A stretch of 64,000 nt of DNA. Source: Octopus sinensis (Eukaryota). The stretch is taken from NCBI RefSeq assembly GCF_006345805.1, contig NC_042997.1, positions 202,058,001 through 202,122,000 on the forward strand, given 5' to 3'. Under the pieces are notes generated by a model, which saw only the letters and a list, made by a program, of their open reading frames with translations, was not told where the DNA came from and searched no databases. Each line of letters opens with the position of its first letter. The first letter of the stretch is position 1. The position numbers and the translations under genes are program-made. This document shows positions 5,290 through 60,557 of this stretch, piece after piece.

Positions 5290-6445
5290 TGTTAGCACAC
5301 CAGGCAAAGTGCTTAGCAACATGTCATCCATTTTTACATTTTGAGTTCAAATTCCACTGAGGTTGACTTTGTCTTTCATCCTTTCAGGGTTGCTAAAATA
5401 AGTACCAGTGAAACACTGGGGTCGATAAATTAAATACCAGTGAACCACTGGGGTCGATATATTAAGTACCAGTGAAACACTGGGGTCGATAGATTAAGTA
5501 CCAGTGAAACACTGGGGTCGATAGATTAAGTACCAGTGAAACACTGGGGTCGATAGATTAAGTACCAGTGAAACACTGGGGTCGGTAGATTAAGTACCAG
5601 TGAAACACTGGGGTCGGTAGATTAAGTACCAGTGAAACACTGGGGTCGGTAGATTAAGTACCAGTGAAACACTGGGGTCGGTAGATTAAGTACCAGTGAA
5701 ACACTGGGGTCGGTAGATTAAGTACCAGTGAAACACTGGGGTCGTAGTAGATTAAGTACCAGTGAAACACTGGGGTCGGTAGATTAAGTACCAGTGAAAC
5801 ACTGGGGTCGGTAGATTAAGTACCAGTGAAACACTGGGGTCGGTAGATTAAGTACCAGTGAAACACTGGGGTCGGTAGATTAAGTACCAGTGAAACACTG
5901 GGGTCGGTAGATTAAGTACCAGTGAAACACTGGGGTCGGTAGATTAAGTACCAGTGAAACACTGGGGTCGGTAGATTAAGTACCAGTGAAACACTGGGGT
6001 CGGTAGATTAAGTACCAGTGAAACACTGGGGTCGGTAGATTAAGTACCAGTGAAACACGGGGTCGGTAGATTAAGTACCAGTGAAACACTGGGGTCGGTA
6101 GATTAAGTACCAGTGAAACACTGGGGTCGGTAGATTAAGTACCAGTGAAACACTGGGGTCGGTAGATTAAGTACCAGTGAAACACTGGGGTCGGTAGATT
6201 AAGTACCAGTGAAACACTGGGGTCGGTAGATTAAGTACCAGTGAAACACTGGGGTCGGTAGATTAAGTACCAGTGAAACACTGGGGTCGGTAAATTAAGT
6301 ACCAGTGAAACACTGGGGTCGGTAAATTAAGTACCAGTGAAACACTGCGGTCGATAAATTAAATACTAGTGAAACTCTGGGGTCAATACAATCGACTATC
6401 ACCCTCCTCCGAATTTCAGGCCTTGTGCCTCTAGTAGAAAGTTCT
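5290..6445 (+). mobile_element. SINE group C expanded by an internal minisatellite
   Basis: Head at 5290-5395, tandem array, then normal tail atcgact...ggccttgtgcctctagtagaaa. Confidence 0.85.
5397..6390 (+). repeat. 32-bp minisatellite, about 31 copies (attaagtaccagtgaaacactggggtcggtag)
   Basis: Head-to-tail near-identical units with no spacers; each holds the ccagtg-aaa-cactgg hairpin. Confidence 0.97.
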
Positions 6446-48908: not shown

Positions 48909-49431
48909 TATATAGTATGTAGTATTTTAGTAGAGATTGATTTGAACTGAAATTCCATTTGATGTTTTTATTCATCATAATATAATGATATATCGACAAG
49001 TTAAATCCAGAAGATCAAAATTATTTGAAGATATCATAAATACACTTTTGTCTTGCTGACAAAAGGTTATTGATTCTGTCATTACTTATTTTGATGAATA
49101 AATTTCATTTTTGATGCTGCATAGCTTTCAGTTTTCAAGAAAAATACTTTCTATCGCTTTTTTCCTTTTTCCATTTTCCTTTCTTTTTTTTCAAATCAGT
49201 ATAGATTATGTGAGTGTGCAAGGCCGTGTAAAACAAAGTTATGGAGTTACGAAGATGTAAGTGTGTGACTGTGTGAATGCTAAGAATAAAGGAGAGAATA
49301 GAATGCTTCCATATGAATTAAATACATCTTTAATCTGTTCATGTATGTACTTATTCACATTGTGTACTCGTATTTACAGCAGAGATCTCATTTATGCTGC
49401 TTGTTACATGCAAAAACCTAATGCACTTTAT

Positions 49432-49444
49432 ACATATATATATT

Positions 49445-49522
<78 letters not shown>
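49432..49522. repeat. (TA)n(GA)n microsatellite
   Basis: Seen directly. Confidence 0.95.
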
Positions 49523-49526
<4 letters not shown>

Positions 49527-49644
49527 TACAGTGTACATTCAAACACATAAGAGATAACCAATAATAGGATATCTGACTCACTAGAAAGAGCAGTTAAAAC
49601 TCCAAGCCACTAATAGTTGCAATTCTGAAAGGGAATGAAAAATA

Positions 49645-49761
49645 AAAACATTTACCCTATTTTTCCTAGACTATGCATAGTTTCTGCAATCTTATATAAT
49701 TTAAAATAAAGTAATTCTAATTTATATCTTGTGCTGCTTCGTCAGTAGGATGTAAATTTTT
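49645..49761 (-). ncRNA. Type I hammerhead ribozyme candidate with complete core
   Basis: Minus strand UCCUA CUGACGA [long stem II] GAAA CUAUGCAUAG UC UAGGA; GUC cleavage triplet; stem I continues as AUUUAC/GUAAAU beyond an internal loop. Confidence 0.8.
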
Positions 49762-49972
49762 CCTTCTCGCTAGACCACCGGTAACAAAGTATTTTTTTAT
49801 GAATATTTTTGCTACCCTAAGATTTTTTAAATATATATATTTATTTATATATTATGATTGTGTTAGTGGTATTAACTTTGCACATCTAAAATGCACATAT
49901 GTGAGTAAGTGCACATTTGTGATAAATGCATTTTTATTACAAATATTAGAAATACGTATTGTTGCATCACAG

Positions 49973-50062
49973 TTTCTGCTGTATGAGGACCCAATCCAGA
50001 GCAGAAGCCTCGACATCAGCAATTCTCGACATGGGATCTAGACCTCCCAGTATTTCCGCAAG
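49973..50062 (+). CDS. Candidate 90-nt internal exon (phase 2-2) of an unidentified gene
   Basis: tgttgcatcacAG acceptor, AAG/GTAATA donor, GC-rich non-repeat island, one open frame FCCMRTQSRAEASTSAILDMGSRPPSISA; no homology recognised. Confidence 0.5.
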
Positions 50063-50119
50063 GTAATAGTGGGTGGGCTCTTTGGGCTTCATTCAAGTTT
50101 CTTTTTTCTTTTTTGTTAA

Positions 50120-50347
50120 CTCTTTAGCATTCAGTTTACTCTGTCAAGTGTAATGCTTTATTTCTTCACATGGTTTTGAATTAATCATGCATTATCTTGT
50201 AGCTTTGAAATTTTGATGATGTGCTTGTTTATTTTTAGAATGACATTGTAGGGTAAGTGTGATAGGTTGGATTTAGCTATAGGTTGGTTTCAACACAAAA
50301 CATGTAGAACATTTGGGCTGGATATGGCCAGTTTAAATGCTAAAGGG
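50120..50347. mobile_element. TTAA-flanked MITE, second family
   Basis: TTAA at 50116-50119 and 50348-50351; ctctttagcatt / aatgctaaaggg termini. Confidence 0.85.
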
Positions 50348-51304
50348 TTAAAGTAGTGATTTTTTTAGTATTAGAATGTTTTGTGCTATTGGCTCTGACT
50401 CTCTGTACTTTGAATTCAAACTCCACTGAGGTCAACTCTGCCTTTCATTATTTCAGGCCTAGAAACTGTAAGGCCATCAGGCCAAATGCTTTGCAGTATT
50501 TTTTCTAGCTCTTTGTGTGCTGAGTTCAAATCCAGCCATGACCTACTTGATTGATTGACTTAATCCATTGCCCTTTTTAACACCACCATCTGGCTACTGG
50601 CTACCTTCAGTGCCTCTACTGGAATACACTTTGTTATAAGCTTTTGTGCCAGGGCTTTGGTTTGTGGAGGACTTTGTCACAACAGCCTCAGAGACATTGT
50701 GAAGGGTCAAGGGCACTGATGTTCCTTCTGAATTGAAAGATCAAAGAAATATATAATTTATTAATTTTTTGTTTTAATTGTTTCAGAAAACAAACAAAAC
50801 TGGTGGTTGGTATGTACATAAATATACACATACAAATAAAGGCCTTATGGCAATGAGACAGTATTATGACAAGACATGTGTAGACTCCTACACAGTTCCT
50901 GCTTGCTAAATTCATTTACAAGGCATTGGTCATCCCAGGGCTACAGTAAAAGACATTTGTCCAAAGTTTGGTGCAATGGGACTAAACAAGAACCCTAATT
51001 GTTGCAAATGAATCTTCTGAACCTTACAGCCATAACCAGGAACATTTGTATTCATATCATTTCCCCATTAGTACAATAATGACATGAGTATTATCAACCG
51101 ATGTAGGTAGTGATAATGTTGCTGGCAACTTGTGTCTCCAGGAGAAATATTTATAGCCTGTCCATAGTTCCATACATTTAAGAAACCTTTTAAATGGAAC
51201 ATCCTTTTAATCTTTTCTTGGCCGTTCAATGTTGAATGAATAGTTGAAAAACTAATTGGAAATGTATAAATGTGGCACATAAGGTAATTACTTAAAGGTG
51301 TCAG

Positions 51305-59239: not shown

Positions 59240-59750
59240 AAATAATAATGAAATTATTGTATACAGTGCTCAGGTGCACCACAACTTGTCAAAAGTGCAT
59301 ATAAAGTACATGCAGTAATGTAGAAATGTCTGGAAAGTGAACAGTGTATGAGTCAGATACATGCTTGTGTGTGTATGGAGGGGAGAAAATCAAGTGTAGT
59401 GTTGGCGAATCTCAGGAAGCATGGAAGTTTTGAAGGATGCAGTGCTCCGACAACTAACAACTGATGCCGGCAGTTTGTTCCATGCTTCAGCAACTCTCAG
59501 CATGAAAAAATGTTTCCTGAAGTCATGGAAGGAGCTGTGCTGTTTTCTTACTTTGTAAATATGTCCACGGGTGTTAGATGGGTGGAGTTTGAAGAGGTGC
59601 TCAGAGTTATTGTTTGTAAGATGGTTGATAATTTTATGGGTGTCTGCCAAGTCAGCTGCCAGACGTCGGAGTTTCAATGTGTCCATGCCCAGGGAAGTAA
59701 GGCGTTCAGGATATGGCAAATGCCTGATGGAGGGTATTCTTTTGGTTGCA
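59240..59750 (-). pseudogene. CR1-clade LINE 3' end (ORF2 C-terminus and 3' UTR)
   Basis: ATKRIPSIRHLPYPERLTSLGMDTLKLRRLAADL...TRGH...RKHFFMLRVAEAWNKLP matches the CR1 YxERLxxLxLxSLxxRR / TRGH / FFxxRVxxxWNxLP pattern. Confidence 0.9.
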
Positions 59751-60557
59751 CTCTCTCTCTTTCTCCTCCCACTTAATCTACTTTCACTCTGCTTTGTCAC
59801 CAACAACCTGAATCAACAACTCACCTTATTATGATCATAAATCATTTCAATTATTATTATTATTATTATTTTAGAAGGACACAATGATACAATCCTCAAC
59901 AAATAATGAAGGCCTCATATTTTTATACCAACAATATATTAAATTTAATCATAAGACTTAAGCCAGTCATATCTAAGTCCTAATCTTTCTTATGAAATGT
60001 AAAAATGTTGTGAATTATTATAATATGGTAAACTTCACATTACCATAGCTGCATAAATGACATTTCTAGACACAGACAGTGATATTAGACTTAATATTTC
60101 GATCCCCATGACCGAGGGTCAGGAGTTCTCAGATACTAGCATCATTCTCACTGGTTCATTGTGTCTTTATGCTCTTTTAGGATCAGTGGGCCCCAAGTCC
60201 TCTTTTGACCTGATTTACTGTCAGGATTGACTCTATTAGGCTTCACTCCTTTGTAGATATTCACAGACAATGAAGGTTTACATATGAAATTGTCCTTCTT
60301 CTCATTTAACTGCCAAGCCCAGACTGCTCACCCAATCATACTGTCTGTGTTGCTGAAGACACAGTAGTACCCTCTCCTGGAGGCATGTGGTTACGTGGTT
60401 AGGGTATTTAGCTCAAAATTATATTTTCTCTTGTGTAGTCAACTTTGCTACAAGAACTCAGGCCATGTCTTCAGTCTGAGGGGAGTTTCCTTCTTTTCAC
60501 TCCTGAGTGTTGGAGATTCTACAAAAGGTCATGAGTATTGTCTTCCTTGGAACAAAC

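Follow-up and report, generated by a model that had tools for sequence, protein, structure and literature searches.

The hammerhead ribozyme that we followed up in a 64,000-nt stretch of Octopus sinensis DNA (here called the window) belongs to a dispersed family of short mobile units. This is a real family of non-LTR retrozymes, not an autonomous Penelope-like element (PLE), and its hammerhead has a shape that is invisible to Rfam. We think it probable that the family is mobilised in trans by the reverse transcriptase and endonuclease of a PLE. As judged by alignment to its relatives, the window element is a 5′-truncated, two-armed copy of the non-coding unit. Taken alone this copy is of little weight, and the interest is carried by the family and by the pattern of its ends. 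For the return of animal retrozymes to DNA, the family offers countable footprints that bear on the ideas of PLE involvement and of circular templates.

The original prediction placed a complete type I hammerhead on the minus strand of the window, with predicted cleavage after GUC between 49669 and 49668, and this motif was confirmed both in the sequence and by a descriptor scan. The core elements CUGANGA, GAAA and NUH occur in this order with stem I open, as in type I hammerheads, and the two core boxes lie at 49745-49739 and 49684-49681 (Table 1). Stem I (UCCUA/UAGGA), a 54-nt stem II region and a palindromic stem III of 12 nt are likewise present as described. The hammerhead was the sole match when both strands of the 64,000 nt were scanned; dinucleotide shuffling, repeated 40 times, left 0.1 loose and 0 strict matches per window. 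No Rfam hammerhead model matches the window at its gathering score; over 49000-50500, a search at E ≤ 10 returned no hammerhead and only microRNA noise from TA repeats, in line with the expectation that standard searches would miss so atypical an architecture. The 141-nt ribozyme region folds at a z of -2.05, and its minimum-energy fold differs from the active one.

Table 1. Parts of the ribozyme and of the insertion that carries it (positions in the window)
Feature	Position	Strand	Remark
Stem I, 5′ strand (UCCUA)	49746..49750	-	Upstream extension and UGGC bulge of the family absent
Catalytic core, first box (CUGACGA)	49739..49745	-	Descriptor match
Stem II, 54 nt	49685..49738	-	A-A mismatch at 10.1/11.1, then basal stem of 3-4 bp
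Stem II internal loop, ACAA (family: GCCA)	49732-49729	-	Family comparison
Stem II, distal part: 13-bp AU hairpin	within 49685..49738	-	
Catalytic core, second box (GAAA)	49681..49684	-	Descriptor match
Stem III: 4 bp and UGCA loop, self-complementary over all 12 nt	49670..49681	-	
Predicted cut site after GUC (C17 = 49669), between 49669 and 49668	49668..49669	-	5′ ends of family copies cluster directly 3′
Stem I, 3′ strand (UAGGA)	49664..49668	-	
Predicted hairpin directly after the cut, competing for the stem I 3′ strand	49637..49665	-	Common register absent across subfamilies
Main arm, 5′-truncated, element -84 to +149 relative to the cut; holds the ribozyme	49520..49752	-	Family alignment
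Inversion junction between arms	49752..49753	.	24 nt of element missing between arm spans
Inverted second arm, element +173 to +254	49753..49833	+	Ends at second priming site
Left target microsatellite (TA)n(GA)n	49429..49523	.	Element end merges into (TC)n on minus strand
Right TA-rich target flank	49834..49855	.	

A search of the genome from which the window comes (2.72 Gb) yielded 1924 candidate relatives, and the 40 that were scored are 79-96% alike. Intact ribozyme cores were found as 204 exact pattern matches (control 0), while two mutually exclusive anchors downstream of the ribozyme gave 396 and 402 matches genome-wide (control 0 each). The insertions are dispersed over many chromosomes. 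The repeat unit measures 454-495 nt at 31-36% GC; seven units that we compared are 65-90% alike, and their longest ATG-initiated ORFs span 30-71 aa, with none over 71 aa. No tRNA gene was found in five family loci. Head-to-tail tandems show in 23 loci, where stem III motifs recur at the spacing of one unit (25 pairs); 10 of these loci contain at least two complete cores. The copies are partial tandems, no long arrays of the unit being seen. Short, low-GC, non-coding units that stand head to tail, each with a type I hammerhead, have the make-up of a non-LTR retrozyme. The link from the motif to retrozymes and PLEs, drawn at the outset, is borne out. The best candidate for a young or source copy is L269, a 2.7-unit insertion between (TA)n runs (L269:1290-2600; C12, ~69.0 Mb) which has three complete cores and 0 mismatches between its two full units. 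In another tandem (L112:1280-2002) both ribozymes carry the same core change, CCGAUGA, as expected from one shared template. The family pattern had 0 matches in metagenome contigs. Contigs from four sequencing runs, whose label as RNA is a guess, include family-like pieces from the part 3′ of the cut and hardly any from stem II, part of which was skipped as repeat; such contigs are blind to ends and levels, and we did not use them as evidence.

The unusual length of stem II, first remarked on in the window copy, proved to be a family-wide trait, at 45-66 nt in 151 complete-core copies. Homologues keep the core and all three stems covary: double changes preserve the pairing of each stem in a set of 123 complete-core copies. 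We drew a structure from 37 sequences (36 of 55 diverse complete-core sequences plus L269), leaving out cut-off 5′ arms, except that of the window copy, and some close or degraded copies. In this structure 89.3% of cells are paired and 19 of 34 pairs have changed on both sides, among them 4 of 5 in stem I, 1 of 4 in basal stem II and 2 of 4 in stem III. None of 500 shuffles reached its paired share or its covariation score, 141 of 500 reached its number of pair types, and slid controls were 28-39% paired. The structure was drawn from the same related sequences, chosen for a complete core, and this support is strong, not independent. Where the original prediction saw an extra A on each side of the base of stem II, there is instead an A-A mismatch at position 10.1/11.1. 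Type I hammerheads usually, though not obligatorily, have a G-C pair at this position, and it is G-C in 77 of the 151 copies.

Beyond this position the family's stem II consists of 3-4 basal pairs, an internal loop with a conserved GCCA and an AU hairpin of free length, and stem I contains an internal loop with a conserved UGGC. A UGGC/GCCA pseudoknot with all five pairs is possible in 95 of the 151 copies, as against 6 of 151 when the arm is shifted upstream; four of five pairs are easily reached by chance (91/151 in the shifted control). Compensatory changes in the pseudoknot are few, at one or two sequences per pair, and its support is mostly conservation. Pairing of stem I with stem II in a pseudoknot is known to accelerate hammerheads (PMC3088659). 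A sister family with a short stem II and the same stem III was considered and rejected: its four matches, the only ones, are apparently deletions of the AU hairpin. Loci L366-L369, which have lost the AU hairpin and have a stem II of 15-27 nt, are natural controls for the role of this hairpin, and a subfamily of 11 of the 151 copies (L152, L235, L255, L256) carries one additional U directly behind the first core box, with a G-C pair next to it.

Stem III is self-complementary in all three main variants, with the loop UGCA in 147 of 151 copies, a figure that is partly due to how the copies were found. Its predicted homoduplex (-16 to -20 kcal/mol) compares with 0 to -1.7 kcal/mol for the hairpin, and ViennaRNA predicts the hairpin of the window's subfamily at 0 kcal/mol. 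In all six stretches tested the active fold lies 4-9 kcal/mol above the ensemble in the same program, which ignores the core and tertiary contacts. The self-paired circle of the unit is predicted at z -2.5 to -4.3. A predicted hairpin at +2..+35 after the cut would sequester part of stem I in 109 of the 151 copies taken singly. We considered whether this hairpin acts as a conserved 'lock', which remains a guess, as RNAalifold returned no common structure from 30 sequences.

To map both ends of the genomic copies we used segments with a downstream anchor, in genome order. The first 100 of the 396 matches gave 98 of them, and the first 100 of the 402, as a second, independent anchor set, gave 99. 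The 3′ ends are fixed, with 190 of 197 lying in two TA-rich zones at +95..+180 (112) and +205..+270 (78), and 174 of 197 abut TA or TC repeats. Of 29 loci in which the anchor occurs on either strand, once in each orientation, 26 use one 3′ zone per arm (p 7e-7). An adjacent inverted arm was found at 105 of 194 junctions, where loci with two anchors are counted twice, and 86 of the 93 that could be classified pair the two zones. The 5′ ends are scattered at ~0.005 per base and rise to 0.0175 at 0..+9. This interval, directly after the predicted cut, holds the ends of 23 of 142 at-risk segments, while 5 of 119 end at -10..-1 (3.6 times background, p 3e-7). Some insertions contribute more than one segment, which makes these p values optimistic. 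The interval was picked after the first anchor set had been seen and held in the second (9/75, p 0.009), where the effect is weaker (p 0.047 over a wider 0..+24). Within the pile-up no single base stands out. It persists at junctions that have no inverted arm (11/70 at 0..+9 and 2/59 before the cut), which rules out fold-back at the post-cut hairpin as its sole cause. The cut site is crossed by 119 of the 197 segments, and 11 of the first 98 are longer than one unit; a linear monomer cannot be the template of these. Variable 5′ ends, fixed 3′ ends, inversions and microsatellite targets indicate dispersal by reverse transcription. PLE insertions are known for partial tandems, an inverted 5′-truncated copy, a tail at one end only and (TA)n targets (PMC8557442), and the family shows this whole set, down to the one-end tail and the microsatellite target. 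We found nothing in the literature on twin priming in Penelope elements.

These end patterns suggest that cleaved and circular templates are copied by an enzyme of the Penelope type. An enzyme that stalls at the folded ribozyme could likewise produce the pile-up, and read-through fits uncleaved multimers as well as circles. A rival account takes the ribozyme for a fold that is conserved without being catalytically active, the template for an uncleaved multimer and the pile-up for a product of reverse transcriptase stalled at structure. Such an account would suit the finding that 84% of the cDNAs reaching +9 pass the cut site (119/142), the active fold that is not favoured in ViennaRNA, the hairpin at +2..+35 and the A-A mismatch at 10.1/11.1 in 54 of the 151 copies. 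We nevertheless regard it as very unlikely: units that are 65-90% alike retain the core and the three stems, the step in 5′ ends is located at the cut site with no such pile-up at the stronger stem II hairpin, and active natural hammerheads with U-U mismatches at 10.1/11.1 do cleave (PMC3088659; PMC7229834).

From the observed family, its conserved structure and its end patterns we infer a cycle of transcription, cleavage and circle formation in which a PLE enzyme acts in trans. Loci with two or three complete ribozymes would be transcribed on the hammerhead strand and the ribozyme would cut after GUC, likely aided by the UGGC/GCCA pseudoknot, with which the long stem II would behave like an ordinary 4-bp stem that bears an additional AU hairpin. 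Monomers would be ligated to circles, in which the hairpin directly after the cut may keep stem I from closing. At the target, a nick in (TA)n or (TC)n would prime cDNA synthesis at two fixed TA-rich RNA sites, one per target end; the ends are those seen in the genome, and the enzyme is presumed. The cDNAs would stop at random, stop near the cut on linear templates or read through for up to 2.7 units, and two arms would join head to head, giving the structures observed; the window copy would have lost its bulge at this point. As the arms of one insertion frequently copy a shared stretch, each insertion might draw on two RNA molecules. The full account is one that we put forward tentatively and with considerable doubt: the genome would record the retrozyme cycle, with ends at the cut site derived from linear RNAs, read-through beyond one unit from circles, a PLE enzyme priming two RNA sites ~90 nt apart, the two RNAs of an insertion perhaps held by the 12-bp palindrome of stem III, and a ribozyme of a new type, with a long stem II and a loop-loop pseudoknot, that standard models miss. 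If this were true, long-stem II families may be under-counted in animals because standard models miss them. A cycle of cleavage, circles and copying by PLEs was proposed earlier (PMC4209133; PMC7229834). PMC7229834 puts forward PLEs and circular templates without direct evidence, and a preprint (10.64898/2026.07.22.740005), in its available text, argues a PLE origin from phylogeny and co-occurrence only and reports no in vitro cleavage for 8 of 9 retrozyme dimers. Loci L269, L263 and L272 are suitable constructs for testing.

A different relation to PLEs would be that the unit is the pseudo-LTR of an autonomous PLE and the copies its truncated ends, rather than an independent non-autonomous element. 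The insertion anatomy is indeed PLE-like, PLE hammerheads of the Hydra clade have a mismatch at the base of stem II (10.1/11.1), a similarly short self-complementary stem III and a (TA)n target (PMC8557442 File S2), and this genome contains GIY-YIG-like PLE fragments (Pfam E 0.01, below cut-off). We consider this alternative unlikely, however. What lies upstream of the unit start is more unit, up to 2.7 units, and not the end of an ORF; a reverse transcriptase or endonuclease was found directly upstream in the same orientation in 0 of 279 loci (with crude protein queries); and the 3′ end of the PLE family located nearby bears no relation to the unit. An autonomous PLE has an ORF for reverse transcriptase and GIY-YIG endonuclease between pseudo-LTRs, and no such ORF was found in the unit or joined to it in the loci examined. 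The unit matched nothing in the one PLE family sampled in this genome, and two family motifs are absent from the consensus files of PMC8557442. The GIY-YIG fragments beside L008 and L030 were considered as the autonomous partner and rejected, since (TA)n sets them apart as insertions of their own and their 3′ end is unrelated. They belong to a separate PLE-like family of 734 candidates (L008:300-1390, L030:1-1120, L091-L110) that has a C-terminal GIY-YIG-like domain, a CxxxxCxxC linker and an end in (TA)n, and whose 3′ region contains a GAAA-palindrome hammerhead half with no canonical first box. At L052:1900-2440, on the minus strand, a family copy occupies a CT-rich part of a degraded region for a reverse transcriptase of the Penelope type.

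Within the window, what had been described as a roughly 300-bp block between (TA)n(GA)n and a TA-rich run is in fact two arms of one insertion in opposite orientation, the main arm being 95.6% identical to L004 over 228 nt. At stem I, where the extension of the window copy reads AUUUAC/GUAAAU, its relatives show CCCUG/UAGGG and a UGGC bulge. The two strands of this predicted extension are able to pair, but the 5′ one derives from the inverted piece and is private to the window copy, and the family's own extension and UGGC bulge were lost because the inversion junction at 49752/49753 removed them. The suggestion of a possibly active ribozyme consequently fits the family better than the copy in which it was made: since the stem I bulge, and with it the predicted pseudoknot, is lost and the partner loop has changed from GCCA to ACAA, the window copy, a partial monomer, is probably a slow or weak, minimal, dead-end ribozyme with no role at the locus. 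Its intact core needs no selection, because the copy is only ~4% diverged from its nearest relatives.

Co-option of the window copy, as a working ribozyme that acts in antisense on a gene beside it, seems to us highly improbable. In its favour, the core is intact and a 6-bp substitute for the stem I extension can form; yet an intact core is expected at ~4% divergence, the bulge and two bases of the partner loop have been lost, and the neighbouring exon is unsupported. The candidate exon, to which the ribozyme was said to lie antisense and ~210 bp upstream, is single-copy in the genome and matches nothing in Pfam, its only protein match being a spurious one to a repeat protein. The sole contig over it (run X1, depth 3, RNA status guessed) passes unspliced through both putative splice sites. 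Elsewhere in the window, 50112-50570 and 50877-50980 are other very high-copy repeats, heavily represented in the run contigs, and 5399-6384 is a tandem array with a 32-bp unit (31 copies, 97% matches). At 59390-59812 on the minus strand a 140-aa frame resembles what we take to be the C-terminal end of a CR1-type LINE protein.

A conserved stem II of 45-66 nt with a loop-loop pseudoknot is not described in the available text of PMC7761336, PMC6155905, PMC6962438 or the other papers cited here, and literature on hammerheads or ribozymes of octopus and other cephalopods, with subscription papers and repeat databases largely outside its scope, yielded no such family. Mollusc ribozymes of a similar kind may be listed in the supplements of PMC7229834 and of preprint 10.64898/2026.07.22.740005. 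Typical type I stems II have 4-5 bp, and 6-8 bp is called long (PMC13725137); variants in PLE hammerheads reach 7-8 bp (PMC4209133), and in PMC8557442 File S2 only spike-moss PLE-X elements, marked there as deviating, have a long loop 2 (28-35 nt).

The family resembles the metazoan non-LTR retrozymes (PMC7229834; 10.64898/2026.07.22.740005) in its type I hammerhead per short, low-GC, non-coding tandem unit, in the dispersal of monomers to trimers through the genome, in its predicted self-paired circle and in the presence of PLEs in the same genome. Its unit of 454-495 nt exceeds the ~170-400 nt of PMC7229834 and falls within the 51-972 nt allowed by the preprint. It differs from those retrozymes, as they are presented there, in having a stem II of 45-66 nt instead of 4 bp and a small loop, a predicted Watson-Crick loop-loop pseudoknot in place of the usual contacts between loops 1 and 2, no long arrays seen and a competing hairpin next to the cut. 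With the pseudo-LTR hammerheads of Hydra-clade PLEs (PMC4209133; PMC8557442 File S2) it shares, besides the self-complementary stem III and (TA)n targets, an unpaired or mismatched foot of stem II, the inverted 5′-truncated arm and a tail at one end only. Unlike these elements it has no ORF, its tail measures ~90-100 nt as against 30-40, and their stems II have 3-7 bp with short loops. The Rfam hammerhead families have the same catalytic core, but no model among them recovers the window copy. The closest parallel for the predicted contact is the pseudoknot-stabilised hammerheads (PMC3088659), in which, as here, a 4-5 bp pairing between stems I and II would replace non-canonical contacts; unlike in those, both putative partners here are internal loops of a type I ribozyme from an animal retroelement.
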